Source of the DNA: an uncultured Candidatus Binatia bacterium
Lineage (GTDB): Bacteria; Desulfobacterota; Binatia; UBA9968; JAJDTQ01
Direction: 5' to 3'
Assembly (NCBI GenBank): GCA_965242525.1
Contig: OZ251459.1
Location: forward strand, 3,552,001 to 3,616,000
Length of the DNA: 64,000 nt
The position numbers and the translations under genes were made by a program. The notes below the pieces were generated by a model. It did no database searches, was not told where the DNA came from, and saw only the letters and a program-made list of their open reading frames with translations. Shown piece by piece: positions 3,279 through 49,943 of this stretch. Numbering within the stretch: position 1 is the stretch's first letter; each line of letters begins with the position of its first letter.

Positions 3279-4427
3279 ATGATTCCTCTCCGCATCTTCA
3301 TCAGCAGTGTACAAAACGAGTTTGCGCAGGAGCGCGAAGCGTTGCGCGACTACTTGCGCGAGGATGCGGGGCTGGACGACCTCGACTCCGAGTGGATGAC
3401 CCTCTTTGTCCGTACCGCGCGCAGAGCCAGAAAATTTCCGCTGCCGGAGGACGTGCATCCCGAGGGATTGCTGAAGCATCTGAACCTGCTGAACAAGGGG
3501 CGGTTGACGAATGCTGCCGTATTGTTGTTCGGGAAGTCGCCCCAACGGTTCCTGATCTCCTCCGAGATCAAGTGCGCGCACTTTCACGGAACCGAGGTCG
3601 AAAAGCCGATCCCTTCGTATCAGGTTTACAAGGGCACGGTGTTCCAACTGGTCGATCAGGCCGTGGATTTCGTGCTCGGCAAGATCGATAGAACGGTAGG
3701 CACGCGGTCGGAGAGCGTCCGTGCGCCCAGGACTTACGAAATCCCGCCGGAGGTCGTCACCGAGGCCGTCGTCAACGCGGTAGCGCACCGCGACTACACG
3801 AGCAACGGCAGCGCACAGGTGATGCTTTTTTCGGATCGCCTGGAGGTTCGGAACCCTGGCCGGTTGTCGTCGCCGCTGACCTTGGAGGAGCTGCGCGTTG
3901 CGCACAACTCGGTGCCTGTCAATCCCCTGCTGGCGGAGTCCTTGTACCTCGCCGAATACATCGAGCGAATGGGAACGGGAACGCTGGACATGATCCGCCG
4001 GTGCGCCGCGGCGGGTCTCCCGGAACCCGAGTTTGCCGTCACTGATGGATTCGTGACGACCCTCCGGCGGGCGTTGCTTGCGGAACGTATAGAGGGGCAA
4101 GGCAGCCAGACAGGGGGGCAAGCAGGGGGGCAAGCAAGGGGGCAAGCAAGGGGGCAAGCAGGGGGGCAAGCAGCACTGTCCGCCAGAGATGCAGCGATAT
4201 TGGAATCGTGCAGCAAAGGACCCGCTACGAGTCGAGAGTTGCAGGCTGCGGCCGGCTACTTCGATCGAACGCGCAGCTTCGAGCAACGCTTGTCACGCCT
4301 TCTAAAGGAAGGATTATTGGCAATGACCGTTCCCGACAAGCCAAGAAGCCCTCTGCAGAAGTACTGTCTGACCACCAAGGGGAGAGCAGCATTGGCGATG
4401 ACAGAGAAAGGAAGTGCGGAGACGTGA
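3279..4427 (+). CDS. HATPase_c_4 (RecG-C-like) plus C-terminal winged-helix protein; N-terminal DUF4062 domain apparently truncated by an internal deletion
   Basis: N-terminus LRIFISSVQNEFAQEREAL resembles the start of DUF4062; EAVVNAVAHRDY, DRLEVRNPG, NPLLA, IERMGTG are HATPase_c_4 motifs; PDKPRSPLQKY at the C-terminus. Confidence 0.7.
   Translation: MIPLRIFISSVQNEFAQEREALRDYLREDAGLDDLDSEWMTLFVRTARRARKFPLPEDVHPEGLLKHLNLLNKGRLTNAAVLLFGKSPQRFLISSEIKCAHFHGTEVEKPIPSYQVYKGTVFQLVDQAVDFVLGKIDRTVGTRSESVRAPRTYEIPPEVVTEAVVNAVAHRDYTSNGSAQVMLFSDRLEVRNPGRLSSPLTLEELRVAHNSVPVNPLLAESLYLAEYIERMGTGTLDMIRRCAAAGLPEPEFAVTDGFVTTLRRALLAERIEGQGSQTGGQAGGQARGQARGQAGGQAALSARDAAILESCSKGPATSRELQAAAGYFDRTRSFEQRLSRLLKEGLLAMTVPDKPRSPLQKYCLTTKGRAALAMTEKGSAET
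4111..4170 (+). repeat. Five tandem 12-bp repeats CA(G/A)GGGGGCAAG encoding a (G/R)GQA linker
   Basis: Direct reading of the sequence. Confidence 0.9.
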
Positions 4428-4461
4428 GCCCTGTGGGATCAGCATGGCATTTGCCAGACGC

Positions 4462-4666
4462 AGAGAGCGACGTCCAGCCCTTGGTGGAAGGATTGCAGGG
4501 CGCTTACTGCAATGACGGGCAGGGTAGCGGTCTGTGGGCCATGCCAAGGGCCAAGCTGGGGGCCATGCTGATCGAAGCAGGGTGCAAGCAGGGAGGGCAA
4601 GTAGGGGTGCAAGCTGACTTGACGGACAGAGATGCAGCGATACCGGAATCGGGCGCGAAGGACCCC
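4462..4666 (+). pseudogene. Degenerate copies of the 3' end of the ATPase gene and of part of the HATPase gene
   Basis: 4462-4528 is near-identical to 3054-3121; about 4590-4666 resembles 4160-4225. Confidence 0.75.
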
Positions 4667-4717
4667 CTGCGAAGCGAGGGTTACGGGCGCGGCCGGGGCT
4701 TTGGCGGGTAGAGTAGC

Positions 4718-4939
4718 ATGGCCATAAACGAAGACCAGAACATTGAATGGAAGATGTCGTGGCGTGACGAGTACCTGAAGTGGATCTGCGGGTTCGCCAA
4801 TGCGCCGGGCGGCGTGCTGGAGATCGGCAGGAACGACCGGCGCGAAGTCCTTGGGGTGAATTTGGACAGGCTGCGGGCCGCGGGAGTCATCCGGCACGTC
4901 GGGGCGACCAAGGCCGGGCGCTGGGAGATGCTGAAGTGA
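4718..4939 (+). pseudogene. Internally deleted AlbA_2/Schlafen-like ATP-binding gene (N-terminus joined to C-terminal wHTH)
   Basis: EDQNIEWKMSWRDEYLKWICGFANAPGGVLEIG (AlbA_2 start) is joined directly to LRAAGVIRHVGATKAGRWEMLK (typical wHTH end); only 73 aa. Confidence 0.7.
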
Positions 4940-7900: not shown

Positions 7901-8091
7901 CGCCTGCGGATACCAGGGAGGCGAAAGCGCTCGCCCTGGACCGGGCCGTCCGCGGCGTCAAGAAAGCGGACTGGCGGGGAAACCGGTTCAAGGAGATCGA
8001 GGTCCGCAACGCCATCCAGTCGGTGCTGGACGGCGACGATGGACTGGTGGACAGGATGTTCGACATCGTGAAGGCCCAGCGTGACTACTGA
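4936..8091 (+). CDS. hsdR: Type I restriction endonuclease subunit R
   Basis: Nuclease RPD...ELK, Walker A HTQGSGKS, DECH, GFTGTP, LLTGFDAP, QAICRVNR; GTG start overlaps the upstream TGA (GTGA). Confidence 0.95.
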   Translation: MSTVGQREIHTQRQTVAFFRDALGYAFLGNRKDRPGNGNVEEALLTGFLERRGHDGRIIGKALRELRKAAALGGGKTLYDANREVYGLLRYGVKVRPDTGGPHVTVWLIDWSNPDDNDFAVAEEVTVAGEKNTKRPDLVLYVNGVALGVLELKRSTVSVGEGVRQNLDNQKPEFIRPFFATVQLLMAGNDTEGLRYGVVETPEKHWLRWKEADAHPAAGGNPMLRELGQLCAKPRLLEIVHDFMVFDAGVKKTCRHNQYFGVRAAQARVRSREGGIVWHTQGSGKSLTMVWLAKWIREHVESARVLLVTDRTELDEQIEKVFKGVDEDIHRTTSGTDLVRALNAGDRWLVGSLIHKFGVSEEASDEDVETYLDEVRRSLPRGFHAKGELFVFVDECHRTQSGKLHGALKKLLPDAMLIGFTGTPLLKGDKQRSIETFGSYIHTYKYDEAVSDGVVLDLRYEARDIDQRLTSEDRIDQWFEVKTRGLTDVAKAQLKQRWGTMRKVLSSRDRLEKIVADVLLDMETRDRLQSGRGNAMLVSDSIYSACRIYEMFDKTDLKDKCAIVTSYRPMVSDIKGEETGEGRTGKLLQYDVYRRMLAAHFDEPEETAMHKVERFEQEVKRRFVEEPGRMKLLIVVDKLLTGFDAPPATCLYIDKPMRDHGLFQAICRVNRLDGEDKEYGCVIDYKDLFRSLEQSIEDYTGEAFDGYDAEDVKGLLKDRLRSGRERLEEAREAVKALCEPVEPPRDSAAYLRFFCAAEGGGHAQLKDNEPRRVALYELTVAFLRAYANLANEMQEAGYSEAEAREVRAEADHYEKVRLEVRLASGDYIDMKLYEPAMRRLLDTYIRAEESERFSDFDDLTLVRMIVERGAAAVESLPAGIRRNPEAVAETIENNVRRIIIDEMAVNPRYYEKMSELLDALIRQRRQEAMDYREYLAKVVALTKRVHTPETGASYPPSIHTAALRALFDNLEDPQSPLTLDPPAPYDHKPPADTREAKALALDRAVRGVKKADWRGNRFKEIEVRNAIQSVLDGDDGLVDRMFDIVKAQRDY

Positions 8092-8092
8092 G

Positions 8093-8314
8093 GGAAACCC
8101 GGAATCATTTCGGTTCGAGTTCCCTCGCTCCATGGGAAAGCGCGTCCTTCGACTTCGGGAACCTCTGGACAATCAGGGCAGGACGCACTTTCCCATAGGG
8201 AGAGGCGCCTCGATCCGGAATTGATCAGAGGTTCCTGTAATGGATGCCTCCAAGGAAGATACAACTACGCTCAGGACGAACGGAGATGAACGGAGGTAGT
8301 CGTTCAGGGTTTAC
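8093..8314. mobile_element. Composite MITE (family A) with a nested second copy at 8158-8235
   Basis: Outer ends GGAAACCCGGAATCATT / GTCGTTCAGGGTTTAC flanked by TGAG/CGAG; inner ends GGAACCTCTGGACAATC / ATTGATCAGAGGTTCC. Confidence 0.7.
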
Positions 8315-8333
8315 CGAGGGCGAGGACGGCCGC

Positions 8334-9107
8334 ATGGACATCGACAGGACGCGGCGGTTCGAGGAGCAGGGCGGGGCCGCGGAGGTCGAGGACGGCTCCA
8401 TGGACATCGGCGGGACGCCGGTGGAGGTGGTCCGCAAGGACATCAGGAACCTGCACGTGGGCGTGTACCCGCCGAGGGGCCGGGTGCGGGTGGCGGCGCC
8501 GCTGCGCCTGGACGACGAGGCCGTGCGCTTGGCGGTCGTGGCGCGTCTGGGCTGGATCCGTCGGCGGCAGGCCGAGTTCCAGCGGCAGGACCGCCAGTCC
8601 CGCCGGGAGTTCGTGACCGGCGAAAGCCATTACTTCGAGGGGCGGCGCTACCGGCTCGACGTGACCGAGCGCCCCGGCCCGTCGACGGTCCGTTTGCTGG
8701 ACAACACGAGGATGATGCTGCGGGTTCGCCCGGGCGCCGGACGAGACACCCGGGAGGCCATCCTGCATCGCTGGTACCGCCGTCGGCTTCGCGGCCGGTT
8801 GCCGGCCCTCCTCGCCAAGTGGGAGCCGCGCGTGGACGTGCAAGTGGCCGAGGCGCGCATCAAGAGGATGAAGACCCGCTGGGGCACGTGCAACCGGGAC
8901 GCCCGCCGCATCTGGCTGAACCTGGAGCTGGCGAAGAAACCCGCGCCCTGTCTCCAATACGTGGTGCTGCACGAGATGGTCCACCTGATCGAGCCGCGTC
9001 ACGACGACCGTTTCCGGGGCCTGATGGACAGGCTCATGCCCCGGTGGCGCCTGCACCGGGACCGCCTCAACCGCACGCTGCTCGCTCACGAGGACTGGCG
9101 TTACTGA
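8334..9107 (+). CDS. YgjP-like (DUF45/M48-type) metal-dependent hydrolase associated with type I RM; alternative start 8400
   Basis: HEMVH zinc motif, MKTRWGTCN, IWLNLELAK; usual position after hsdR. Confidence 0.85.
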   Translation: MDIDRTRRFEEQGGAAEVEDGSMDIGGTPVEVVRKDIRNLHVGVYPPRGRVRVAAPLRLDDEAVRLAVVARLGWIRRRQAEFQRQDRQSRREFVTGESHYFEGRRYRLDVTERPGPSTVRLLDNTRMMLRVRPGAGRDTREAILHRWYRRRLRGRLPALLAKWEPRVDVQVAEARIKRMKTRWGTCNRDARRIWLNLELAKKPAPCLQYVVLHEMVHLIEPRHDDRFRGLMDRLMPRWRLHRDRLNRTLLAHEDWRY

Positions 9108-9125
9108 AACGCTGAACGATTATCC

Positions 9126-11727: not shown

Positions 11728-13299
11728 CTACCCGGCCCGCTCCACCTCGAAGGCGGCGATGTTGCGGTCTTCCTTGCTGAACTCCACCCCGATCAGGTGG
11801 ACGGGCTGGCCCACGTGCCGGTACTTGTCGGCGTAGCCCTTGGCCTTCAACTGGGCCAACGCTTCCCCCGTGGCCTCCTTCTCCACCGTCTTGAACTCGA
11901 ACACGTAGATGTGGTTGTCGAGGCGCACCGTCATGTCCGCACGTCCGACGCTTCCGCTATCCTCCGCCGTCAGGTCGAAGCCCTGGGCCGCAAAGCAGGA
12001 ATAGACCACGCTGGCGTAGTAGCCCTCGTATTTCTGGATGGCGTTCCTGACGTGCCACTGGTAGGGAACGCCGGCAAAGACGGCCCGGAAAAACGCCTCC
12101 AGCCCCGCGAAGTCGTTGGCGGACAGCAACTTCCGGAGGGATCCGTCCCGCGTCAAGTGCTGGGACTCGTCAGGCAGCAAGGCCATCAGCAAACGCTCGT
12201 TCAGGCTCTGGCGCACTTCCCGGTTGGGGTAACCCAGGCGGTAGCGTATGACGCCTTCCCGGTTCTCGTAGTCGAGGACCGTGAGGTAGCCGGTCTGGAA
12301 CAGCAGCGCCTCCGTGGCCATCTCATCCACGTCGAAGGCCGACAGCAGGGCCTCGTCGCCGGTCATGCGGTCCAGGTTCAAGGTGGAGACGCGGCGCTGC
12401 TTCAGGAGGTCGATGAGGAACTTGGGGGAGCCGGTCTCGAACCAGTGGGCCTTGAACTCGCGGACCTCGAACAACAGCAGGACGTCGAAAGGGTTATAGA
12501 CCTTTTCGTTGCCCCGCCAGCAGTAGCCGTTGTACCAGTGCCGTATCTCGTCCCGGTCCAGGCCGGGAAGTTCGGGCGCGAACACGGTGTCCAGGTCTCC
12601 GTCCGTGTAGCCGCAGATGGCGGAGTAGCGCGGGTCCAGGGTGATGTCCTTCAGGTTGTTGAGGCCGGAGAAGATGCTCACCTTGGAGAACTTGCTGACC
12701 CCGGTGAGAAAGGCGAACTTGACGTGCGCGTCGCTGGACTTGATCGTGGAGTACAGCCCGCGCAAGTAGTCCCGGTTGGCCTGGGCCACTTCCGGCGCCT
12801 CCAATGCGTCGAGTATCGGCTTGTCGTACTCGTCCACCAATACCACCACGCGCGCTCCCGTGCTTTGGTGCAGCGCCCGGACCAGATGCCGGAGGCGGGT
12901 CGGGCCGCTGCCTGACCGGGCATCGACTCCGGCGCTTTCCTCCAATTCGTCGAGCTGGTCCGTCACGTCTTCCTTCAGCCAGTCCGGATCCTTGTAGTTG
13001 CCGCTGCCGAAATCCAGCCGCACCACCGGGCAGCGCACGTCCCAGTCCCAATGGTCGTGGATGGCCAGCCCCCGGAACAACTCCTCGCTCCCCTCGAACA
13101 GTTCCTTGATGGTGTCCAGCAGCAGGCTCTTGCCGAAGCGCCGGGGACGGGACAGGAAGTAGCAGCGGCCTTCGTCCACCAGCCGCCGGACCCAGGGGGT
13201 CTTGTCCACGTAGTAGCAGTCCTCCTCCCGGATCACCCGGAAGGTCTGGACGCCGATGGGCAGCTTGCGTTTGGCTGGGCCGTCTTCGGGAAGGCTCAT
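11728..13299 (-). CDS. AAA-ATPase-like protein with C-terminal PD-(D/E)xK nuclease domain
   Basis: LPIGVQTF, YYVDKT, SRPRRFGKSL, DEYDKP; C-terminal GRADM...FEFK...ALAQL. Confidence 0.9.
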   Translation of the reverse strand: MSLPEDGPAKRKLPIGVQTFRVIREEDCYYVDKTPWVRRLVDEGRCYFLSRPRRFGKSLLLDTIKELFEGSEELFRGLAIHDHWDWDVRCPVVRLDFGSGNYKDPDWLKEDVTDQLDELEESAGVDARSGSGPTRLRHLVRALHQSTGARVVVLVDEYDKPILDALEAPEVAQANRDYLRGLYSTIKSSDAHVKFAFLTGVSKFSKVSIFSGLNNLKDITLDPRYSAICGYTDGDLDTVFAPELPGLDRDEIRHWYNGYCWRGNEKVYNPFDVLLLFEVREFKAHWFETGSPKFLIDLLKQRRVSTLNLDRMTGDEALLSAFDVDEMATEALLFQTGYLTVLDYENREGVIRYRLGYPNREVRQSLNERLLMALLPDESQHLTRDGSLRKLLSANDFAGLEAFFRAVFAGVPYQWHVRNAIQKYEGYYASVVYSCFAAQGFDLTAEDSGSVGRADMTVRLDNHIYVFEFKTVEKEATGEALAQLKAKGYADKYRHVGQPVHLIGVEFSKEDRNIAAFEVERAG

Positions 13300-21234: not shown

Positions 21235-22059
21235 CTACGCGATCCTGTCCACCAGCATCAGGACCACCGCGAGGACGATCACTGCGATGACGATCGCCTG
21301 CAACCGTCCCGGGGGGATCCTCTTGCACAGGACCGCGCCGTAGTGGACACCGGCCAGGGATCCCAGCGACATGAAGGCCGCGATCTCCAGGTCCACGTCG
21401 CTCGCGCCCTGTCCCCGGCCCACGAACGCATACAGGAAGGACATCACCGTCATCAGGAGGACCGCCACGAAGATGGAAGTCCCCACGTACCGGGAGGTCT
21501 CCCGGTAGAAGATCAGCAGCGCGGGGATGATCAGCACCCCGCCGCCGATGGACGTCATCCCCATGACGGCGCCCACCAGGAAGAGACAGGAGCGCCTTGC
21601 CAGGGCCCCGCCCCTCGACCGGAAGAGCCGGTCGAACCGACGGTAGTCGAAGAGCAGCAGCGCCGCCAGCGACAGGCAGATGGAGGCCATGACGAGGTAA
21701 CTGACCGCCTCCTGCAGCGTCTCCACCCCGCTCGGGGAAAGCGACATCTTGCTCCATTTGACGGCCAGGGAGCCCAGCACCACTCCCGGCGCCGCGGCCA
21801 GGAAGAACCGGAGCCCGACTTCCGCGTTCAGGGTGCCCTGCCGGTAGTGCTCGACCGCTGCCCAGACCTTGGTCAGGACGCCGTAGAGTCCGGCGGTGCC
21901 CACGGCCGTGATGGGCTCGAGCTTCATGACCAGGAGCAGGAGGGGGACGGTGAGCACCCCGCCGCCGATGCCGGTAAGGCCGATGAGGAAGCCCAGCACC
22001 GCGCCGGACAGGACGAAGAGGATTATGTCGGGCAGGGGCGTCAGAACAGGATCTCCCAA
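21235..22059 (-). CDS. Sulfite exporter TauE/SafE family membrane protein (start approximate)
   Basis: GLTGIGGGVLTVPLL and GMTSIGGGVLIIPAL internal repeats; highly hydrophobic. Confidence 0.85.
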   Translation of the reverse strand: MGDPVLTPLPDIILFVLSGAVLGFLIGLTGIGGGVLTVPLLLLVMKLEPITAVGTAGLYGVLTKVWAAVEHYRQGTLNAEVGLRFFLAAAPGVVLGSLAVKWSKMSLSPSGVETLQEAVSYLVMASICLSLAALLLFDYRRFDRLFRSRGGALARRSCLFLVGAVMGMTSIGGGVLIIPALLIFYRETSRYVGTSIFVAVLLMTVMSFLYAFVGRGQGASDVDLEIAAFMSLGSLAGVHYGAVLCKRIPPGRLQAIVIAVIVLAVVLMLVDRIA

Positions 22060-23402
22060 CAATCTTCCAGCGAGCGGACCCCCACCAGCTCGGGACCCCG
22101 CACCTCCGGTAGCTGCCGGCGGTTGCCCTCGGGCAGTATGCACTTGCGGAACCCGAGCTTGCCCGCCTCGGCCACCCGCGCCTCGGCCCGGGTCACGGTG
22201 CGGATCTCCCCCGCGAGACCCACCTCGCCCACGAAGATCGTGTAGGGGTCCACCGCCCGGTCCATGGAGCTGGAGGCGACTCCCACCGCCACCCCCAGGT
22301 CCGCGGCGGGCTCCGACACGCTCACGCCTCCGGCCACGTTGATGAACACGTCCTTGTCGAAGAAGCTCATCCCCTTGCGCTTTTCCAGGATGGCCAAGAT
22401 CAGGGCCACGCGGTTGGCGTCCACGCCGATGCAGGTGCGCCGGGGCAGGTTGAGGAAAGAGCGGGTCACCAACGACTGGACCTCCACCAGGATCGGGCGC
22501 GTCCCCTCCATGCTGGGGACCACCACCGAACCCGACCCTCCCAGGGGCCGCTCGGAAAGGAAGATCTGCGACGGGTTGGGCACCTCCCGGAGGCCGGCTT
22601 CCTGCATCTCGAACACGCCGATCTCGTTGGTGGAGCCGAAACGGTTCTTGACCGCCCGCAGGATGCGGAAGCTGTGGCCGCGCTCGCCTTCGAAGTAGAG
22701 CACCGTATCCACCATGTGCTCGAGCACTCGCGGCCCGGCGATGGCGCCGTCCTTGGTCACGTGCCCCACCAGGAAGACGCCGACGCCGCTCTTCTTGGCC
22801 AGGGAGATGAGCGCCCCCGAGCACTCCCGCACCTGGCCGATGCTGCCGGGCGCGGAAGGGACGGCGGAGGTGTGGACGGTCTGGATGGAGTCCACCACCA
22901 GCACCCCGGGCCGGACCGCCTTGACCTGCTCCAGTATGCGTTCCAGCGAGGTCTCGCTCAGCACCAGCAGGCTCGAAGACGCCGCCGAGATCCTCCGGCC
23001 GCGCATCTTGACCTGCTGCTCCGACTCCTCGCCCGAGACGTAGAGGCAGGCGGGGCCGTCATGGCTCAGGGACGCCGCGGCCTGGAGCAGCAGCGTCGAT
23101 TTGCCGATGCCCGGGTCGCCGCCGATGAGCACCGCGGAACCGTCCACCAGGCCGCCCCCCAGGACCCGGTCGAACTCCTCGATGCCCGAACGCACGCGGC
23201 TGTCCGTGTCCGCGGTGGCCTCGTGGATGGGCGAAGGCGAGCGCCCGGGGCCGGAGTCCTCGCTCCCCCGCGCATGGGGCCGGGCCGTCACGGCCTCCTC
23301 GGCGAGGGAGTCCCACCGGCCGCAGTCCGGGCAGCGTCCCAGCCATTTGGGAGACTGGAAACCGCAGTTCTGACACTCGTAAACGACTCGGGCTCGCGCC
23401 AT
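22041..23402 (-). CDS. radA: DNA repair protein RadA/Sms
   Basis: CxxC...CxxC zinc finger, GDPGIGKST, KNRFG. Confidence 0.97.
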   Translation of the reverse strand: MARARVVYECQNCGFQSPKWLGRCPDCGRWDSLAEEAVTARPHARGSEDSGPGRSPSPIHEATADTDSRVRSGIEEFDRVLGGGLVDGSAVLIGGDPGIGKSTLLLQAAASLSHDGPACLYVSGEESEQQVKMRGRRISAASSSLLVLSETSLERILEQVKAVRPGVLVVDSIQTVHTSAVPSAPGSIGQVRECSGALISLAKKSGVGVFLVGHVTKDGAIAGPRVLEHMVDTVLYFEGERGHSFRILRAVKNRFGSTNEIGVFEMQEAGLREVPNPSQIFLSERPLGGSGSVVVPSMEGTRPILVEVQSLVTRSFLNLPRRTCIGVDANRVALILAILEKRKGMSFFDKDVFINVAGGVSVSEPAADLGVAVGVASSSMDRAVDPYTIFVGEVGLAGEIRTVTRAEARVAEAGKLGFRKCILPEGNRRQLPEVRGPELVGVRSLEDCWEILF

Positions 23403-23499
23403 GGGCCACTCCCCACCCCGGTCCATCATAGGGCGAGCCGCGGCGAAATGCCATTTGTCAAACCGGGGACCAGCAATTAAGTATGTGGGGACCGGCGTC

Positions 23500-24621
23500 A
23501 TGGCCTCCTACCTGCACATCGACATGGACTCGTTCTACGTGTCCGTGGAACGGGTCCTGGACCCGTCCCTGGAGGGCAAGCCCGTGATGGTGGGGGGCGA
23601 CGGGCGCGGCGTGGTGACCTCCGCCTCCTACGAGGCGCGGCAATACGGGGTCCGGTCCGCCATGCCGGGCTTCCGGGCGCGCCGGCTCTGCCCCCACGGC
23701 GTCTTCGTCCCCGCCCGGCGGGGAGTTTACGTGGACTTTTCCGGGAAGGTGTTCGAGTTGCTCCGCTCCTTCTCGCCGGACGTGCGGGCTTTCTCCATCG
23801 ACGAAGGGCTGGTCAACCTCACCGGCACGGACCGGCTCATGGGGCATCCCATGCGCACGGCCCACGACATCATCGGACGCATCCAAGGCGACCTGGGGCT
23901 GCCGTCGTCCGGGGGGCTCGCCGCCAACCCGACCCTGGCCAAGATCGCCGCCACACTGGCCAAGCCCCGGGGCCTGCTCTACGTTCCCCCCGGGTCCGAA
24001 GAGCGTTTCCTCGCCCCGCTGGACGTGGCGGTGGTCCCCGGCATCGGCCCCAAGACGCGCCGCGAGCTCGCGGACCGCGGCATCGCCACGGTCTCCCAGC
24101 TCCTCGCCCACCCCCGGCTCCGCCGCCGTTACCTGGACCTGGACCGTCCCGCGGAGGAGGGTGCCCGCGCCCGCGAACATTCGGTGGGGAGCGAGACCAC
24201 CCTCGCGGAACCGCTCACGGACCGGGCCGAGATGGAGCGGGTGCTGGGAGGGCTGGTGGAAGACGTGGCCAGGAGGCTGCGCCGCCAGGAGGGCCGGGCC
24301 CGGCGCATCACCGTCAAGATCCGCTACTCGGACTTCAAGACCATCACGCGCTCGCGCACCCTCGAAGCGCCCACGTGCTTCGACATGGAGATCTTCAAGG
24401 TGGCGCGGGAACTGGCCGCGGGCAACCGCGCCCCCGGCAAGCCGGTGCGCCTGCTGGGGGTGGCCGCGAGCCGCATCACCGCCGCGGGCTGGCAGGAGTC
24501 CATGTTCGACTACGGCGAGCGGGCGTCCATGGACAGGCTCTACCGGGGCATCGACCGGCTGGGCCGCAAGTACGGCCAGGGCACGGTCACGCTGGGGGCC
24601 GGAAAGGACCGCGAGGATTGA
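23500..24621 (+). CDS. dinB: DNA polymerase IV (Y family)
   Basis: HIDMDSFYVSVE, SYEARQYGVRSAM, SIDE. Confidence 0.93.
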   Translation: MASYLHIDMDSFYVSVERVLDPSLEGKPVMVGGDGRGVVTSASYEARQYGVRSAMPGFRARRLCPHGVFVPARRGVYVDFSGKVFELLRSFSPDVRAFSIDEGLVNLTGTDRLMGHPMRTAHDIIGRIQGDLGLPSSGGLAANPTLAKIAATLAKPRGLLYVPPGSEERFLAPLDVAVVPGIGPKTRRELADRGIATVSQLLAHPRLRRRYLDLDRPAEEGARAREHSVGSETTLAEPLTDRAEMERVLGGLVEDVARRLRRQEGRARRITVKIRYSDFKTITRSRTLEAPTCFDMEIFKVARELAAGNRAPGKPVRLLGVAASRITAAGWQESMFDYGERASMDRLYRGIDRLGRKYGQGTVTLGAGKDRED

Positions 24622-25655
24622 ACGGCCAACCGCTCCAACCCTTCCTTGCCGCCTGCCGCCGCGTCAGGACCCCCTACACCCCGGTCTGGCTCATGCGGCA
24701 GGCGGGGCGCTACATGGACCATTACCGCAACCTGCGGGCCAGGGTCGGCTTCCTGGAACTGTGCAAGACCCCGGACTTGGTGGCGGAGGTGACGGTCACC
24801 CCGGTAGAGCGACTCCAAGTGGACGCCGCCATCCTGTTCGCCGACATCCTGCTCCTGCTGGAGCCCATGGGCGTGGGTCTCGAATACGGCAACGCCGGGC
24901 CGGTGATCCAACGGCCGCTGAGGACGGCCCGGGACATCGACCGGCTGCGCGACCCGGCGCCGGGAGAGTCCCTCTCCTACGTGTATGATGCGGTCCGCGC
25001 CACGCGCGCGGCCCTGGGCGGGCGGACGCCCCTGATCGGGTTCTGCGGCGCCCCCTTCACGCTGGCGTCGTACCTGGTCGAAGGCGGGTCCTCGCGCAAC
25101 TACGTCCACACCAAGCGGCTCTTCCACACCGACGCCGGCGCCTGGCGCGCGCTCATGGACCGGCTCGTGGCCGCCACCGTGTCCTACGTCAACTCCCAGA
25201 TCGAAGCCGGCATCGAGGCGCTCCAGGTGTTCGACAGTTGGGTGGGCTGCCTTGCCCCCGAGGACTACCGGGAACACGTGCTGCCGCACATGCGCCGGCT
25301 GATGGCGGGGGTGGCCCCCGGGGTCCCGGTCATCCACTTCGGCACCGGCGCCTGCGGCCTCCTGGAGCTCATGCGGCAGGCGGGCGGCGACGTGCTCGGG
25401 GTGGACTGGCGCGTGGACCTGGACCGGGCATGGAGCCGCGTGGGCCACGACGTGGCCATCCAGGGCAACCTGGACCCCGTGGCCCTGCTGGCGCCGCCCG
25501 CGGAGATCCGCAAACGGGTCCGGGACATCCTGCGGCGGGCCCAGGGCCGCCCGGGCCACATCTTCAACCTCGGCCACGGCGTCCTTCCGGAAACCCCGGT
25601 GGACCATGTGAAGGCCATGGTGGACGCGGTCCATGAGATCAGTTCGTCCCGATGA
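24618..25655 (+). CDS. hemE: Uroporphyrinogen decarboxylase
   Basis: PVWLMRQAGRY, GNLDP, IFNLGHG; TTG start overlaps the dinB stop. Confidence 0.95.
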   Translation: MNGQPLQPFLAACRRVRTPYTPVWLMRQAGRYMDHYRNLRARVGFLELCKTPDLVAEVTVTPVERLQVDAAILFADILLLLEPMGVGLEYGNAGPVIQRPLRTARDIDRLRDPAPGESLSYVYDAVRATRAALGGRTPLIGFCGAPFTLASYLVEGGSSRNYVHTKRLFHTDAGAWRALMDRLVAATVSYVNSQIEAGIEALQVFDSWVGCLAPEDYREHVLPHMRRLMAGVAPGVPVIHFGTGACGLLELMRQAGGDVLGVDWRVDLDRAWSRVGHDVAIQGNLDPVALLAPPAEIRKRVRDILRRAQGRPGHIFNLGHGVLPETPVDHVKAMVDAVHEISSSR

Positions 25656-25949
25656 GGCTCCGAACGATCGGGCAGAGGGCATGAGCGCGCCCTTCGACTT
25701 CGCTTCGCTACGCTCAGGACGAACGGGGATCGGAGCCCGGGGCCGCGGCGCCGGTCATACGATGTTCCCTCCGCTCAGGACGAACGGGGGCCGGAGACGC
25801 AGTCCGGGTGCTGCCGGCCGAGGTCCCGGCTCCGCTCAGGACGAACGTGGGTCGGAGGGTCAGGGCAAGGGAGTCCATCCTCCATGTCTCGCCGCCCTTG
25901 CCCGCGGGTCCGCGCGTGACCCCATGAACCGCGACTTGCCGAAGCAGCC

Positions 25950-27488
25950 ATGACCAAAGGACACTCGGAACGATTACCTCCGTTCGTCCTGAGCGTAGCG
26001 AAGCGAAGTCGAAGGACGCACTTTCCCCCAGGGAGAGGGAGTTCAAGCCGAAATCGTTCAGGGTTTCCCAAAGACGTCGTCGTCATGGGCGGAGGCGCCT
26101 CCGGTCTGGCCGCGGCCCATCGGCTGGCGGAACTCAGCCGGGCCGGGCCCTCCGAGTTCCGGGTCACGCTGCTGGAGGCGTCCCACCGGCTCGGCGGGGT
26201 CATCGCCACCGAGCACACCGGCGGCCTCCTCCTGGAGCTCGGCCCGGATTCCTGCATCACCGACAAGCCCGCGGCCTTGCGCCTCTGTGAGCGCCTGGGG
26301 CTCGCCGAACGTCTGGTTGCGCCGCGGCACGGGGGGTTGAAGCTCTACACCGTCCACCGGCAGGAGTTGACGCCGCTTCCCGAAGGGTTCCTGCTGATGG
26401 CCCCCACGAGGCTGGGGCCGGTCCTGCGCAGTCCCCTGTTCTCATGGAGGGGCAAGCTGCGCATGGCCCTGGAGCCGGTGCTGCCCCGGCGCTCCGGTGA
26501 AGAAGACGAGAGCCTCGCGTCGTTCGTGCGGCGCCGGCTGGGCCGGGAGGTGCTGGAGCGGGTGGCCCAGCCCCTCATCGGCAACATCTACGCCGCGGAC
26601 CCGGAAGCCCTCAGCCTGGCCGCCGCCATGCCCCGTTTCCCGGAAATGGAGCGCGCCCACCGAAGCGTCGTCCTCGGGACCCGCCGGGCGCAGACCCGGC
26701 GCGCACGGGCGGAGGGCGAGACCGGCGCGCGCTGGGGCCTGTTCGTCAGCATCGACAGGGGCATGGAAGTGCTGGCGAGCCGCCTCGCGGAGAGGCTGGG
26801 TCCCCGGGCGTTGCGCCTCGGCGAGACGGTCCGGGAGCTCCGCTGGAACCCCGCGGCCCGCCGCTGGAGGGTGGCCACGGGCCGCGGCGGGTTCGACGCG
26901 GACGCGGTCATCTGCGCGCTGCCCGCCTTCGCCGCCGCGGACGTCCTGGGGGCGCTGGACGGGGAGTTGGCCCGCGACCTGAAGGAGATCCCCTTCTCGT
27001 CCACCGCCACCGTCAACTTGGCCTACCGCCGGAGCGACATCGCCCACCCCCTGGACGGCTACGGGTTCGTGGTGCCGCACGCCGAACGCCGGACCATCAC
27101 CGCGTGCACCTTCAGCAGCGTGAAGTACGCCAACAGGGCGCCGGAGGACGTGGCCCTGCTGCGCTGCTTCACGGGCGGCGCCTTGCAGCCGCGCCTGCTC
27201 GACCAGCCGGACACCGTCCTCGAAGCCCGGGTCCGGGAGGACCTGGAGGCGCTCCTCGGCGTCTCCGGCGCACCGACTCTCTGCCGCATCGCCCGCTACC
27301 CGGACGGCATGCCCCAGTACAACGTGGGCCACCTGGAACGCGTGGAAAGGATCGAGGCCCGCCTGGAACGATTCCCTGCCCTCGCCCTGGCCGGCAAGAG
27401 CTACCGCGGCGTAGGCATCGCCGACTGCGTCCATAGCGGCGAAACCGCCGCGGAACGGGTCGCGGACGAACTCGCCCGGGGAGCATGA
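25950..27488 (+). CDS. hemY: Protoporphyrinogen/coproporphyrinogen III oxidase with an in-frame 38-codon MITE insertion after Lys3
   Basis: GGGASGLAAA, ELGPDS, GYGFVVP, MPQYNVGH, YRGVGIADC. Confidence 0.9.
   Translation: MTKGHSERLPPFVLSVAKRSRRTHFPPGRGSSSRNRSGFPKDVVVMGGGASGLAAAHRLAELSRAGPSEFRVTLLEASHRLGGVIATEHTGGLLLELGPDSCITDKPAALRLCERLGLAERLVAPRHGGLKLYTVHRQELTPLPEGFLLMAPTRLGPVLRSPLFSWRGKLRMALEPVLPRRSGEEDESLASFVRRRLGREVLERVAQPLIGNIYAADPEALSLAAAMPRFPEMERAHRSVVLGTRRAQTRRARAEGETGARWGLFVSIDRGMEVLASRLAERLGPRALRLGETVRELRWNPAARRWRVATGRGGFDADAVICALPAFAAADVLGALDGELARDLKEIPFSSTATVNLAYRRSDIAHPLDGYGFVVPHAERRTITACTFSSVKYANRAPEDVALLRCFTGGALQPRLLDQPDTVLEARVREDLEALLGVSGAPTLCRIARYPDGMPQYNVGHLERVERIEARLERFPALALAGKSYRGVGIADCVHSGETAAERVADELARGA
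25959..26068. mobile_element. 110-bp family A MITE inside hemY, CAAA target-site duplication
   Basis: Ends GGACACTCGGAACGATT / AATCGTTCAGGGTTTCC; CAAA at 25955-25958 and 26069-26072; carries REP motif A. Confidence 0.85.
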
Positions 27489-27526
27489 CCCGGTAAGCGA
27501 ACCGTGGCGGGAAGCAGGCAAATGGA

Positions 27527-27865
27527 GGCGCTTTCGGAATTCCTGCGGGTTGTGGCACTCCCCTCCCATGCGATGAGGTCCGATTTCATCCTTGCTGCCT
27601 CGTTCGGGATGGATTCCCGCTTTCGCGGGAATGACGGGGGCGGGCGTCCGCAGGTGACAGGGCGGATGTCTGCGGGAATGACGGGGCGGGCATCCGCAGG
27701 AATGACGAGGCGGGCGTCTGCGGGAATGACGAGGGTGGGCGTCTGCGGGTGACGGGGCGGGGCGTCCGTGACGCCAAACCGCGGACGGCATGGTGGGAAT
27801 GGGAGGGAATCGACCTCATCGCGTGCGTCGGGAGCGCCACAACCCACACGAATCCCTGAAGCGCC
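27527..27865. mobile_element. Family C non-autonomous element with about 55-bp imperfect TIRs, enclosing palindrome B and about six 24-bp tandem units
   Basis: GGCGCTTTCGGAATTCCTGCGGGTTGTGGCACTCCC...GATGAGGTC is mirrored at about 27812-27865; related ends at 35778, 44798, 47827, 48028, 58778, 59228. Confidence 0.7.
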
Positions 27866-27937
27866 GGGATTCCCTTACCCCCGACTTTCCTATCCCCGTT
27901 CGTCCTGAGCGTAGCGAAGCGGAGTCGAAGGACGCGC

Positions 27938-28357
27938 TTACCCGCCGCCGACCTCCTGTCGGCTGAGGCGCGGCTCGTAGAGCATCTGGATCACCACGCC
28001 GTCGGGGTCGGCGCAGTAGAAAGACGCGCTGCCGTCCCGGTGGCGCTTGAACGGTTTGAGGATGGTCACGTCCCTGGCCCGGAACTCGCGTTCCAACTCC
28101 TGTACCCGGTCCATGCGGGAGACGATGAAGCCCAGGTGGTCGAGGGGGGAGGCGGCGGCCCCGGGCGCCTGCCCGTCGGGGAGCTGGTGCAGGGCGAGGT
28201 TGTCGGAGCCGGAGCTGAGATAGACGTTGCCGGGGTCGGGCTGCCACACCACTTCCATGCCCAGCACGTCCTGGTAGAACGCCTTCGAGCGCTCCACGTC
28301 CGTCACGTTGAGGGCCACGTGGCGCATTCCCATCAAGCCGCTGAGCGCCTTGGGCAT
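27938..28357 (-). CDS. VOC/glyoxalase family protein
   Basis: HVALNVTDVERSKAFY, DHLGF, FYCADPDG. Confidence 0.88.
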   Translation of the reverse strand: MPKALSGLMGMRHVALNVTDVERSKAFYQDVLGMEVVWQPDPGNVYLSSGSDNLALHQLPDGQAPGAAASPLDHLGFIVSRMDRVQELEREFRARDVTILKPFKRHRDGSASFYCADPDGVVIQMLYEPRLSRQEVGGG

Positions 28358-33815: not shown

Positions 33816-34832
33816 ATGCAGCCGCGGCTGACCCTATCCTGTGGCGAATACCGGCGCACGCGCCCGTTGCTGGACGGGCGCGTCACCGTGGCGGGCTACG
33901 ACGTGGAAGTCGTGCCGGACCCGTTCCCGTCCACCGGCGTCCTCGGTGACTACCAGTATCCGCGAACGCTGCGGATGCTGGACCACAAGGCGTTCGACAT
34001 CTGCGAGATGGGCATGGCGCCCTACGTGACGGCGCGCTCGCAGGGCGTTCCACTGGCGGCCATCCCGGTCTTCCATTACCGCCGCTTCCGGCATCCCTAC
34101 ATCTTCTGCCGCGGGGGTTCGGGCATCGAGACTCCCGCGGACCTGGCCGGTCGGCGCGTGGGCGTGCGGCGCCTCAACCTGAGCGCGGGGGTGTGGGCGC
34201 GGGCGTTGCTCCAGCACGACTACGGAGTGGATCTGAACGAGGTCACCTGGGTGGTGACGGTGGACGTGCCGCTGCGCGACGAGGTCCGCAACGGCCTGAA
34301 ACTGGAGGTGGTGCGCCCCGGCGAGGGTCTGGAGGAGCTACTCGTCCGGGGCGACATCGACGCCATGATCGAGGCGTCCGCCCTGGGCGCGTCGGCGCGA
34401 GCGGCGGCCGGCGTGCACCGGTTGCTGGGTGAGGACACGCGCCAAGCCGAGGCGGACTACTATGCGCGCACCGGCTACTTCCCCATCATGCACACCATCG
34501 CCCTGTGGCAGGACGCAGCCGCACGGCACGAGGGCCTGTGCCAAGCCCTGCACGACGCCTTCCTTCGCGCCAAAGCCGCGGGCAACCGCGCCGGCGAGCC
34601 GCGGGCGCGCTACGTCCTGGCGCTGGAAGAGGAAGAGTGGTGGCAGTCCCTCACCGCGGAGCAGACGGAGACCCTGTGCGGCGGCCCGGGGCGCCCCGCG
34701 GACCCCTGGAGCTACTCCCTGGACGAAGACGGGAGGACGGTGGAGGCGTTCCTCGACTACGCTTACGAGCAGGGCCTGACGCCGGAGCGCTATCGGACGG
34801 CCGACCTGTTCGTCCAGCCGGGGAAAGCGTAA
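33816..34832 (+). CDS. 4,5-dihydroxyphthalate decarboxylase-like / SsuA-type binding-fold protein
   Basis: Y.RTRPLLDGRV, FDICEM, IPVF..RRFRH, FPIMHTI, YAYEQGL. Confidence 0.75.
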   Translation: MQPRLTLSCGEYRRTRPLLDGRVTVAGYDVEVVPDPFPSTGVLGDYQYPRTLRMLDHKAFDICEMGMAPYVTARSQGVPLAAIPVFHYRRFRHPYIFCRGGSGIETPADLAGRRVGVRRLNLSAGVWARALLQHDYGVDLNEVTWVVTVDVPLRDEVRNGLKLEVVRPGEGLEELLVRGDIDAMIEASALGASARAAAGVHRLLGEDTRQAEADYYARTGYFPIMHTIALWQDAAARHEGLCQALHDAFLRAKAAGNRAGEPRARYVLALEEEEWWQSLTAEQTETLCGGPGRPADPWSYSLDEDGRTVEAFLDYAYEQGLTPERYRTADLFVQPGKA

Positions 34833-35000
34833 GGAACCTCTGAACAATCCAGACAGGGGGCATGAGCGCGTCCTTCGACTTCGCTTCGCTACGCTCAGGA
34901 TGAATGGGGGGACTTCGCTTCGCTACGCTCAGGACGAACAGGGATGGGGGCGTCAGGGTGAGGGAATCCATCCCGGATGTCTCGATTGTTCAGAGGTTCC
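34833..35000. mobile_element. 168-bp family A MITE with perfect 17-bp TIRs and GTAA target duplication
   Basis: GGAACCTCTGAACAATC ... GATTGTTCAGAGGTTCC; GTAA on both sides, the left copy containing the upstream stop codon. Confidence 0.9.
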
Positions 35001-39361: not shown

Positions 39362-39393
39362 CGCATCACGCCAACGGAAAAAGGGCCGGAACC

Positions 39394-40023
39394 ATGAGCA
39401 CCGTGAAACTGGACCCGCCGGAGAGGCTCGCCATGAGCCTGGGGGAAGCCATGTTCACCCAGAGGGCCATCCGCAGGCTCAGGCCCGACCCGGTGAGCGA
39501 CGAAGACCTCGCGCTGCTGATGGACGCGGCGTCCAAGGCGCCCAACTCGCGCAACGAGCAGAACGCGCGGTTCCTGGTGGTGCGGGACCGGGAGCGGGTG
39601 CGCAGGTTCGGGGAGTTGTACCGGGAGGCGTGGTGGGCCAAGCAGCCCGCGGACTGGAAGCCCGAGGACGCTCCCCCGGGGGACCGGCACCTGGCGCCCA
39701 TGCGGTTGGCGGACGCCATGAAGGACGCGCCGGTGGTGGTGCTGGCCGTGTCCAAGGCCCCGGGACACGCAAGCTCCGTGCTTCCCGCGGTGCAGAACCT
39801 GATGCTGGCCGCCCGCGCCCTCGGCATCGGGTCGGTGCTGACCACCCTGCACCCGCGGGTCACCGAGCGGGTCCACGAATTGTTCCGGATCCCGCGGGAA
39901 GCCGAGGTCCATTGCTGCATCCCGCTGGGCTACCCCGAAGGCCGGTTCGGCGCCACCGCGCGCCGGCCCGCTTCGGAGACCACCTACTACGAGGAATGGG
40001 GCAACCCGCCGCCGTGGGAGTGA
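39394..40023 (+). CDS. Nitroreductase family protein
   Basis: QRAIRR..PDPV, AP...NEQ, QNLMLAARALGIGS. Confidence 0.9.
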   Translation: MSTVKLDPPERLAMSLGEAMFTQRAIRRLRPDPVSDEDLALLMDAASKAPNSRNEQNARFLVVRDRERVRRFGELYREAWWAKQPADWKPEDAPPGDRHLAPMRLADAMKDAPVVVLAVSKAPGHASSVLPAVQNLMLAARALGIGSVLTTLHPRVTERVHELFRIPREAEVHCCIPLGYPEGRFGATARRPASETTYYEEWGNPPPWE

Positions 40024-40136
40024 GCCGTGCGCCGTGCGGCGCGGTCGCCGCATGGATCCCGTGCCTCGGCCCCTGCACCGCGCCCTGCCCGGGGTGAGAG
40101 CGGTTGCATTCCGGCGCCATCCTTCAACCCTCCTCG

Positions 40137-40398
40137 GGAACGGCTGACCAATGCCGGGCCTCCCTTGGGGAAGCGCGTCCTTCGACTCCGCTTCGCTCAG
40201 GATGAACGGGGATGGTTGTGCCGCTCGGGACGAATGGGGATGGGAACCTCCGAACAATCGGGACAGGGGCATGAGCGCGTCCTTCGACTTCGCTACGCTA
40301 CGCTCAGGACGAACGGAGGGACTTCGCTACGCTACGCTCGGGATGAACGGGATGGTTGTGCCGATCAGAACGAACGGGGATGGTCGTCCAGACGTTCC
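40137..40398. repeat. Cluster of family A MITE ends and REP motif A copies between convergent genes
   Basis: Left-type ends at 40137 and 40243, right end GTCGTCCAGACGTTCC at 40398; three motif A copies. Confidence 0.7.
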
Positions 40399-40400
40399 CC

Positions 40401-41420
40401 CTACAGCCCGTACAGGGCTCGCGCGTTGTCGCCGAGGATCTTGTCGATGACTCCGGCCGGGACCGAGCCTTCGCTGCGCAGCAGGCGCAGAGCCTCGATC
40501 TGGCTCGACGTGTCGTTGTGGCCGTAGTCGGTGCCGATGACCAGGTTGTCCTCGCCGGCGTCCCGGAGGACCGACGGGAGGTCGTCGGTGGTCTGGCAGG
40601 CCACGTACATGCGGTTCTCGGCCATGACGTTCTCCGGGACCGGCCTCCCGAGCTTCCGTAAGCGGAGCCGGAGGTCGTTGAGGGCATAGGGGACCCACTG
40701 GGCGCTGACCTCGACGAAGCCCCAGCGCAGCTTGGGGAAGAGGGCCGGCGTCCCTTCCATGAGCAGGGAGTGGAAGGTTCCCACCACCGGCAGCTTGAAC
40801 CGCGAGAAGCCGGTCTCCCCCTCGTAGAGGTCGTGTATGGCGGCGCTGTTGGTGCCGGCGTGGACGCAGACGGCGAGGTCCAGTTCGGAGGCCATGTCGT
40901 AGAGCGGGAACAGGTCGGGGTCGCTCAGGCGCTTCTCGTACTCCACCCCGCGCATGAAGACGCCGCAGGCGCCGTTGTCCCTGGCGAACCGCAGCTCGTC
41001 GCGCAGCGCGTCCGGGGAGAGCAGCGGCGGCATGGCGACCCATCGCAGGCGGCCCCGGCCCTTCTTCCATATCTCCGCCAGCCACCGGTTGTAGCTCTTG
41101 CACATGGCCAGCTCGGTGGGCCGGCTGTGGGTGTAGGGGCGCAGCATCAGCGTGGGGTAGAGCACCTGCACGTCCACCTCCAGCTCGTCCATGTGCCGGA
41201 TCCTGGCGTCGAGGTCGCGCATCTCGCGCTGGTCGACCGAGGTGTTGGCGCCGATGTTGTTGTTCTTGGGGTGCAACCGGTTGTCCACCACCCAGTACTC
41301 GACGCCGCCCTCCCGGGTGACCGGGAACGGTGCATGCTTGCGCTCGGCCTCGGCCATGAACTCCCAGGTGAAAGGCGTCTCGATCACGTGGGCGTCGGAA
41401 TCGATGGTTCTCGGGTTCAT
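40401..41420 (-). CDS. Amidohydrolase_2 family protein
   Basis: IDSDAHVIE, VQVLYPT, CVHAG, GTDYGH. Confidence 0.88.
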   Translation of the reverse strand: MNPRTIDSDAHVIETPFTWEFMAEAERKHAPFPVTREGGVEYWVVDNRLHPKNNNIGANTSVDQREMRDLDARIRHMDELEVDVQVLYPTLMLRPYTHSRPTELAMCKSYNRWLAEIWKKGRGRLRWVAMPPLLSPDALRDELRFARDNGACGVFMRGVEYEKRLSDPDLFPLYDMASELDLAVCVHAGTNSAAIHDLYEGETGFSRFKLPVVGTFHSLLMEGTPALFPKLRWGFVEVSAQWVPYALNDLRLRLRKLGRPVPENVMAENRMYVACQTTDDLPSVLRDAGEDNLVIGTDYGHNDTSSQIEALRLLRSEGSVPAGVIDKILGDNARALYGL

Positions 41421-41449
41421 CGCGCTTCTCCGGTCCTGCGCCGCCGCGG

Positions 41450-43662: not shown

Positions 43663-44082
43663 TCAATCCCAGGGGTTCAACAGTTTCGCGCCGGTCGGAG
43701 CGAAGTCTTCGACGTTTCGGGTGACGATGGTCAGCCGGTGGACCAGGGCGGTGGCGGCGATGAGCGCGTCGCGGTCCGACCGACGGTCGGGGACGTGCAG
43801 TCCGGCGCAGCGCCTTGCAACCGCTGTATCGACGGGAAGGATACGGTCGGTGAACGCCCGCAATACCCGGGTATCGAGCCAGGAGCGGAGCATCGAGTCT
43901 TGGGCCGAGTCCCGACGCTCCACCAGCAGTATCCCGATTTCGAGTTCCAGGACCGTGACGGCCGACAGGAAGAGGGTGGCCGTGGAGACGCGGTTCGCCC
44001 AGGCAATCACCTTTGGCTCGGCTTTGCGGTTCTTGGCCTTTCCCAGTTCGGAAACGACGTTGGTATCGAGCAGGTACATCAC
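43663..44082 (-). CDS. vapC: VapC/PIN-domain toxin
   Basis: YLLDTNVVSE, DALIAATA, VTRNVEDF. Confidence 0.92.
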   Translation of the reverse strand: MMYLLDTNVVSELGKAKNRKAEPKVIAWANRVSTATLFLSAVTVLELEIGILLVERRDSAQDSMLRSWLDTRVLRAFTDRILPVDTAVARRCAGLHVPDRRSDRDALIAATALVHRLTIVTRNVEDFAPTGAKLLNPWD

Positions 44083-44336
44083 GACAAGTCCGGGATCCGA
44101 TACATGTCGCGGTTCGACCGGGCCGGCTCGAAATCGACGTCGGCGCCCTCCGGCATGGCCAGCAAGTCAACGATGCCCGCGTCCTTCTCCGTGATCTTCC
44201 GGTAGTCCTCGATGCTCAACAGGACATGCGCCGCACGGCCCCGGTCCGTTATGAAAACCGGCCCCTTCGAGGCGTCCCGCTTGGCCTTGCTCACATCCTG
44301 ATTGAACGCCCTGCTGGTAACGACGGTGATGCCCAT
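44079..44336 (-). CDS. Phd/YefM family antitoxin
   Basis: SRAFNQDVSKAKR, GPVFITDRGR.AHVLLSIE. Confidence 0.9.
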   Translation of the reverse strand: MGITVVTSRAFNQDVSKAKRDASKGPVFITDRGRAAHVLLSIEDYRKITEKDAGIVDLLAMPEGADVDFEPARSNRDMYRIPDLS

Positions 44337-44423: not shown

Positions 44424-44690
44424 TCATTCCCGCGAAAGCAAGCGGGGGCGGGAATCCAGCCGTTCCATGGCGCCCTGCCTCACTGTGCATTAGGAACCTC
44501 TGGACAATCGAGACATCCAGGATGGATTCCCTCACCCTGACCCTATCTCCGTTCGTCCTGAGCGTAGCGAAGCGAAGTCGAAGGACGCGCTCATGCCCCC
44601 TGCCCTGATTGATCAGAGGTTTCATTACATGGATCGAGTGGACCGAGAAGGGCCATCCGCCGAGTGGATTCCCGCTTTCGCGGGAATGAC
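44424..44690. mobile_element. Palindrome-B-bracketed element with a GIY-YIG remnant, interrupted by a family A MITE (44493-44623, TSD ATTA)
   Basis: Inverted GTCATTCCC...GGGAATCCA pair; ATCGAGTGGACCGAGAAGGGCCATCC matches the 58.9-kb remnant. Confidence 0.75.
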
Positions 44691-44959
44691 GGGTGTGGGG
44701 GTTGCAGGAATGACGGGGCAGGCGTCTGCGGAGCAATGACTGCGTGACCCCTTTCGCTTCCCTTCCTCCTACCTGCCCACACAAAAGCCGGAAGAGCCCG
44801 GAGACCTCCCCGTTCGTCCTGAGCGTAGCGGAGCAAAGTCGAAGGACGCCCGGTTGACGCGCGAATCGGATTCTTGTTAAGAGGGTATCCGCGATCCGGG
44901 GCGTCGCGTCCTCGTGCCAGCCCGCGTCCCAACGCGCACAGGAAGAGAGGGTTACGCCA

Positions 44960-48086: not shown

Positions 48087-48095
48087 TTGCCGCCC

Positions 48096-49943
<1,848 letters not shown>

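Follow-up and report, generated by a model that had tools for sequence, protein, structure and literature searches.

The window, a 64-kb stretch of DNA with a G+C content of 68%, has as its closest public relatives metagenome-assembled genomes (MAGs) titled Candidatus Binatia. It contains hemE (24375-25655), assigned to uroporphyrinogen decarboxylase on the basis of Pfam URO-D and TIGR01464, and, after a spacer of 294 bp, hemY (25950-27488, plus strand), an open reading frame of 512 codons with its insert that was assigned to protoporphyrinogen oxidase from the ORF list and from Pfam, NCBIfam and structure matches. The hemY product matches Pfam Amino_oxidase over residues 51-504 (E 4e-58) and scores 270.1 bits against NCBIfam TIGR00562 (proto_IX_ox; curated cut-off, 97.85), with residues 41-506 aligned to profile positions 3-466 of 470. 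Among solved structures, 3i6d is the nearest match (E 1e-79), and the solved HemY-type oxidases 3i6d, 2ivd, 3nks and 1sez share family and fold with the window protein in alignments that span residues 40-506. None of the seven solved chains matched aligns to residues 1-33, and the best-scoring one starts at query residue 40. The product is thus, by family, a HemY-type protoporphyrinogen oxidase, for which enzymatic activity is predicted.

The additional N-terminal residues derive from a discrete insertion. The gene opens with its original first three codons, ATG ACC AAA (Met-Thr-Lys; 25950-25958, plus strand), which are common to the orthologues and are preceded by DNA collinear with that of a related Candidatus Binatia MAG locus, L001. 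These codons are followed by a MITE-like element of 110 bp (25959-26068, plus strand) that is missing from L001 and every homologue. Its left and right terminal inverted repeats (25959-25974 and 26053-26068, plus strand) pair with each other, 13 of the first 16 bases matching the reverse complement of the opposite end, or 15 of 20 if 20 bases are considered. Between them lies the family core (25980-26022, plus strand), a hairpin-forming module of 43 nt that is common to all copies and is 95% complementary to 25684-25726 (43 nt) in the hemE-hemY spacer. A 4-bp target-site duplication, CAAA, abuts the element on both sides (25955-25958 and 26069-26072); with boundary bases counted, the direct repeat is CCAAAG (25954-59 and 26068-73). 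The remainder of hemY (26073-27488, plus strand) begins with GAC GTC GTC GTC ATG GGC and, from Asp42 on, runs collinear with the orthologues. The first-pass annotation had placed a 110-bp element with terminal inverted repeats and a CAAA duplication directly after ATG ACC AAA, and this description proved exact to the base.

Element and duplication together add 114 bases, i.e., 38 codons without a single stop, as that annotation had calculated. The 110-bp element has no open reading frame besides those that read through it, and its codon composition differs sharply from that of its host gene: GC3 is 0.47 in the insert versus 0.92 across the rest of hemY, the pattern expected of recently arrived non-coding DNA. 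Removal of the insert in silico yields a protein whose first 10 residues (MTKDVVVMGG) are identical to the N terminus of P0001, the closest insert-free relative (96% identity), which agrees with the earlier proposal that excision restores a normal FAD-binding start.

Orthologues lack the insertion, as the first-pass annotation had anticipated. The 38 residues are absent from all 17 aligned orthologues, each of which starts with M, then T or S, then K or R, like the window protein before the insert. The closest HemY relatives are 96% identical over 92% of the query, the 90% cluster of P0001 has 18 members, and the best 120 homologues are almost all 474 amino acids long, exactly 512 minus 38. 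Of these 120, 105 have the FAD glycine motif GxGxxG beginning at residue 9, a further 13 have it beginning at residues 8-18, and two are N-terminally truncated; 7-17 residues therefore lie ahead of the motif in all 118 full-length homologues. In the window HemY the motif starts at residue 47, whereas in no best-120 homologue does it start later than residue 18.

At the nucleotide level, L001 is syntenic with the window (93.7% identity over 2165 bp across hemE), and its hemY (L001 10004-11421) is 89.6% identical to that of the window over 1418 bp. In the pairwise alignment of the two, the flanks are collinear and a 114-bp gap falls exactly at the insertion site. This empty site was read from the pairwise alignment together with blastn synteny, as a MAFFT nucleotide alignment had misplaced the 114-bp gap. 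The insert was found in no other sequence among the homologues, loci and protein representatives searched. By these sequence comparisons, the 38-residue insert is derived and recent.

The element belongs to an abundant repeat family. With ≤2 mismatches allowed, the window contains 24 occurrences of its core 14-mer (13 exact) versus 0.96 expected, and none of 100 shuffles reached 24. A blastn search with the 110-bp element returned 21 high-scoring segment pairs (HSPs) in the window (itself and 20 further) and, in 76 loci, 11 HSPs confined to four (three in L001, one in L010, two in L016 and five in L017); the exact core is present in three of the 76. In total, the 64-kb window holds approximately 16 family loci, with 11 left-type and nine right-type end sites. 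Copies have a modular layout consisting of a 16-bp end, a short linker, the hairpin-forming core of ~43 bp (tandemly duplicated in some copies), a variable module and the opposite end. Seven copies, 78-223 bp long, are two-ended. Four of these seven are immediately flanked by 4-5 bp direct repeats (CAAA, GTAA, TCTCG and ATTA), one has a 3-bp repeat and two have none; the calculated chance of a 4-bp flank match is ~1/256 per copy.

A separate composite copy of the family (25656-25900, minus strand), with three core units 61 bp apart, occupies the hemE-hemY spacer. This spacer region measures 245 bp in the window versus 77 bp in L001, and a repeat-rich block downstream of hemY measures 448 bp versus 36 bp; the spacer copy, the hemY copy and the downstream block are three window-specific insertions that surround or enter hemY. 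Conversely, a two-ended copy of 134 bp (11937-12070) is found only in L001, the window being uninterrupted there. Insertions are thus polymorphic in both directions between genomes that are ~93% identical. The hemY element combines the characteristics of a MITE: short length without a transposase gene, terminal inverted repeats, a target-site duplication, dispersed copies and presence/absence polymorphism. Four-base-pair duplications with ends starting in GG are typical of some IS5-like groups. No transposase domain was detected among the 39 window proteins, and no end pair encloses a transposase, as in a parent insertion sequence, in the window or the 76 loci. The whole window has no Rfam match at the gathering threshold; a permissive Rfam search of 25600-28000 gave a lone snoRNA match (E 0.81), outside the element and attributed to chance. 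Sequence evidence supports a non-autonomous, MITE-like family that has recently been mobile in a Candidatus Binatia-like lineage, and the earlier proposal that a separate family of this kind inserted in frame after hemY codon 3 is upheld by the orthologue alignment, the empty site, the census and the duplications.

Several copies lie at gene boundaries. Some are placed directly against stop codons (that of hemE at 25653-25655, 8089-8091 and 34830-34832), another lies next to 48096-48098, and the stop codon at 9105-9107 is inside an element end; in the case of hemE, it is one end of the spacer copy that follows the stop codon directly. In this genome of 68% G+C, all four clear duplications are A/T-rich, and the ACC AAA of the first hemY codons forms a similar A/T-rich island. 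From these four duplications, a small sample, we infer that a preference for A/T-rich targets concentrates insertions at gene boundaries. An apparent preference of the family for A/T-rich tetramers, which would be clustered at such boundaries, may explain why the element entered hemY at this site. Of the ~16 window loci, only the hemY copy is inside a conserved coding region, the rest being intergenic or touching gene ends.

The open frame probably requires no special explanation. Since element plus duplication amount to 114 bp (3 × 38), the downstream frame would be kept at any insertion of the hemY copy, and because four of the six frames of the element are stop-free, approximately two-thirds of insertions would leave an open frame. 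The frame-preserving outcome was probably unremarkable luck. Furthermore, for only three of the seven two-ended copies do length and duplication add up to a multiple of three, and with one of ~16 loci intragenic and copy lengths that are not multiples of three, there is no sign that the family is adapted to coding regions.

The predicted structure places the added residues outside the enzyme. An AlphaFold2 model (60-sequence alignment; mean pLDDT, 81.2; pTM, 0.82) has an intact enzyme core, while residues 1-37 have pLDDT values of <50 and no secondary structure. The tail includes seven Arg, two Lys and one Glu, giving it a pI of 12.0 and a charge of approximately +8. The predicted first strand of the Rossmann fold, β1, consists of residues 41-46 and is followed by G47-G52, the glycines of which are invariant in alignment A2.

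The most probable interpretation, held with a probability of about 0.68, is that a MITE insertion between codons 3 and 4 of hemY, with duplication of CAAA, produced an in-frame, tolerated tail as a recent accident. A non-autonomous element mobilized by a transposase would have entered hemY in one of its four stop-free frames, such that reading continues into the unchanged gene. Translation would still start at the original ATG, and the product would be a protoporphyrinogen oxidase carrying a strongly basic, disordered tail of 38 residues before Rossmann β1; such a tail would be tolerated since it amounts to an extension of the N terminus. Judged from the sequence and the model, a tolerated N-terminal tail is the most likely state of the window HemY. 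The first-pass annotation saw here a repeat family creating new peptide sequence in a core enzyme. The event is best read as a recent, probably neutral or slightly harmful accident rather than an adaptation.

The insertion could instead have silenced or crippled hemY, leaving a very recent null or hypomorphic allele in a cell that uses another oxidase or haem uptake. This is unlikely, but several observations are compatible with it. The insertion is private to the window among everything searched, and the second family copy, in the hemE-hemY spacer, could disturb co-transcription. The putative ribosome-binding site, compared by eye, reads GAAG in the window versus GGAG in L001 and may be the weaker of the two. 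The inverted ends of the element can pair from coding base +10, which might lower initiation; folding compared with shuffles gave no significant extra stability for the element (z, -1.37) or the hemY 5' region (z, -0.49). The hemY reading frame is free of stops and frameshifts, yet an intact frame is weak evidence of function because 96% identity to insert-free relatives leaves little time for decay.

Other evidence argues against loss of function. All conserved residues are kept: the window HemY has no private substitution at columns that do not vary among the 59 other A2 sequences, and its single private change at columns conserved at ≥95% is matched by one each in the insert-free P0001 and P0002. 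Window-private substitutions number nine (after two alignment artefacts at the insert were dropped) versus three in P0001 and five in P0002, a relative-rate count that is uninformative on relaxed constraint because P0001 and P0002 are sisters. In addition, the tail lies outside a predicted fold that is itself undisturbed, and N-terminal positions of proteins are generally permissive. No second protoporphyrinogen oxidase, on which a cell lacking HemY might rely, is encoded among the 39 proteins of the window (64 kb of genome). As to other signals near the start of the gene, a promoter scan of 25500-26200 detected no promoter-like site, and a terminator scan of the same interval picked up a single weak terminator-like site, which lies within the left end of the element on the minus strand.

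The comparison with Rickettsia palindromic elements (RPEs) made in the first-pass annotation is apt as an analogy, judging by a 2024 review (PMC10969869) which describes in-frame MITE-host gene fusions as “not unusual” and RPEs as the extreme case, at ~150 bp per element and with, in some families, close to half the copies located in ORFs. For RPEs in frame within housekeeping genes, the review cites Ogata et al. 2000. By description, the two share a short palindromic mobile repeat in a conserved metabolic gene, a frame that is kept, a few dozen added residues and a structurally permissive place. Taken further, the analogy would make the present family a counterpart of RPEs in a free-living, G+C-rich lineage, its four stop-free frames repeatedly supplying real proteins with basic, disordered tails or linkers, some of them retained and functional. 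Candidates are HemY, the protein P0121 and the gene ending at 62785, the last eight codons of which would be supplied by family sequence. This broader role is improbable. A large share of copies in frame inside ORFs, the hallmark of RPEs, is not seen in the window family, which differs from RPEs in having one of ~16 loci intragenic and copies of 78-223 bp with lengths that are not multiples of three. The hosts also differ, the present one being free-living, Binatia-like and 68% G+C, and that of RPEs being intracellular with a reduced genome.

Protein searches provided no evidence of recurrent use of the repeat-derived peptide in real proteins. Among longer proteins, a peptide search gave six candidates and one match, P0121, a solute-binding protein of 581 amino acids, the annotated N terminus of which carries the same frame of a related family copy. 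Its start may be over-called, as the repeat stretch precedes a signal-peptide-like segment. An exhaustive phmmer search with a 41-amino-acid stretch against 1.84 billion representatives gave two matches. One, P0122, is an unrelated protein with a 15-fold internal repeat and was treated as a false positive; the other, P0123, is a probably spurious ORF of 98 amino acids in which the core peptide is repeated three times in tandem.

Still less probable is that the HemY tail itself has been co-opted, e.g., as a basic membrane- or nucleic acid-binding tail, or that the insert acts as an mRNA-level regulator of hemY. The strongly basic composition and the occurrence of the same family reading frame at the head of annotated P0121 would fit such a role. 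However, the insert is absent from 96%-identical relatives, hence no conservation is demonstrable, its GC3 indicates no coding adaptation, the P0121 stretch may be an over-called start, and the hemY copy is the sole intragenic one among the window loci.

There is a very small chance that translation begins at Met46 (ATG, 26085-26087, plus strand), which would leave the insert as an untranslated leader. Apart from ATG 25950, this is the sole in-frame ATG, GTG or TTG codon within 25950-26090, and a purine-rich run (26031-26041) lies upstream of it inside the element. The run is, however, ~44 bases from ATG 26085, which is too far for ribosome-binding site action. Moreover, Met46 is the last residue of strand β1, directly before the glycine motif, and a start there would remove this strand and leave the product without the residues that precede the motif in every full-length homologue among the best 120. 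The family profile and the solved homologues likewise align from residues 40-42. Any production of the enzyme would thus entail translation of the insert, in agreement with the earlier argument that the downstream ATG lies after the first beta strand.

It is equally doubtful that an assembly error, or a minor population variant, accounts for the insertion. In favour of this reading, the source is probably itself a MAG, like its nearest relatives, and the repeat is abundant. Against this stand the exact junctions, the family-typical 4-bp duplication and the intact frame, and a mis-join of repeat copies would not recreate a collinear hemY on both sides. Ancestry of the 38 residues, with loss in the relatives, can be practically dismissed, as the extension is missing from all 118 full-length homologues in the best 120 and the segment combines inverted ends with a duplication at its flanks, many dispersed copies and a foreign codon composition.

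The MITE insertion in hemY adds one more clear-cut case to a known phenomenon, the in-frame MITE fusion, and it leaves the understanding of gene remodelling by MITEs unchanged. Further in-frame examples given in the same review (PMC10969869) are intragenic ERIC, QMITE1 and Anabaena MITEs. For Coxiella MITEs, basic MITE-encoded peptides and C-terminal overlaps with, or extensions of, functional genes are described in another study (PMC5896051). The present family resembles QMITE1/2 of Coxiella, ERIC and the Anabaena MITEs in its terminal inverted repeats, short flanking direct repeats and mostly intergenic copies, in ends that often touch stop codons and in the occasional basic peptide encoded in frame in real genes. 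The Coxiella QMITE cases in functional genes differ in being C-terminal overlaps, whereas the hemY case is internal, after codon 3, and they belong to another sequence family and phylum.

REP elements and REPINs are likewise abundant, G+C-rich, hairpin-forming and mostly extragenic. The window copies differ from them in having 16-bp terminal inverted repeats and flanking duplications of 4-5 bp, neither of which REP elements are known to carry. No RAYT-type gene is present among the 39 window proteins.

A literature search found no relevant paper on such repeats in Binatia or Binatota, and as far as this search shows, an active MITE family in the uncultured class Binatia is undescribed. The locus also provides an unusually clean natural experiment, in which the same essential haem-pathway enzyme occurs with and without a transposon-derived tail of 38 residues in genomes that are 96% identical at the protein level. 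For annotation, the open frames of the family give spurious N-terminal extensions and small ORFs, as P0121, P0123 and the ORF starting at 8244 illustrate.

The spacer between hemY (25950-27488, plus strand) and the upstream hemE (24375-25655) is occupied by a composite second copy of the MITE-like family (25656-25900), which lies on the strand opposite to hemY and contains three core units, the hairpin-forming modules of the family (~43 bp), at 61-bp spacing. One end of this element is directly 3′ of the hemE stop codon; at the other, the element is truncated. The spacer measures 245 bp in the window, compared with 77 bp in L001, the syntenic locus of a Candidatus Binatia MAG in which the hemY site is empty. 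In four other relatives (L008, L012, L021, and L023), the spacer holds a second, palindrome-based repeat family rather than the MITE-like family. The hemE-hemY junction has thus served repeatedly as a landing site for small repeats.

The second repeat family, which is distinct from the MITE-like family, is organized around a palindrome of the form GTCATTCCCGC...GCGGGAATGAC and is also found in the window, at 27527-27865 and 44660-44740. It includes tandem units of 24 bp (27625-27760) and inverted arms of 54 nt (27527-27580 and 27812-27865), and its copies in the four relatives are located just upstream of hemY.

Ends of the MITE-like family touch or overlap neighboring stop codons at 8089-8093, 9105-9120, 34830-34833, 48094-48098, and 27938-27943. 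The genes concerned encode a type I restriction R subunit and YgjP-like, solute-binding-like, RecQ, and glyoxalase-family proteins, and the TGA stop at 9105-9107 falls within the end of a family copy. The 3′ end of a DUF4143/AAA_14 gene (62785-63963, minus strand) also overlaps a copy (62785-62810), with its final eight codons and stop inside the end of the element, and its C terminus may have been replaced by the element.

Translated copies of the MITE-like family are present among gene calls in public protein collections. Two such proteins, P0123 (98 amino acids), a small open reading frame (ORF) composed of three tandem core peptides, and P0121 (581 amino acids), a solute-binding protein with an annotated head derived from the repeat, suggest that the family gives rise to annotation artifacts. 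Within the window, one MITE-like copy (8093-8315) contains a nested second copy of 78 bp (8158-8235). The YgjP-like ORF (8244-9107) stays open back through this element as far as the ATG at 8244; however, the Pfam match of the ORF begins only at residue 72, and a gene caller would therefore probably overextend it. The 2-kb region at 39362-41449 contains no ORF with gene-like codon bias; inside it, at 40100-40400, five or more degenerate core units of the MITE-like family are clustered.

The minus strand carries a RadA/Sms-like gene at 22041-23501 (Pfam KaiC, AAA_25, ChlI, and zinc ribbon) for which L001, although syntenic elsewhere, lacks a collinear match. In L001, the blocks that flank window positions 22065-23487 are only 65 bp apart (7634-7699). 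Defense and addiction genes are located at 1573-8091 and 43663-44336 and comprise an AbiEii-like AAA ATPase, the type I restriction R subunit, and a PIN/Phd-YefM toxin-antitoxin pair.
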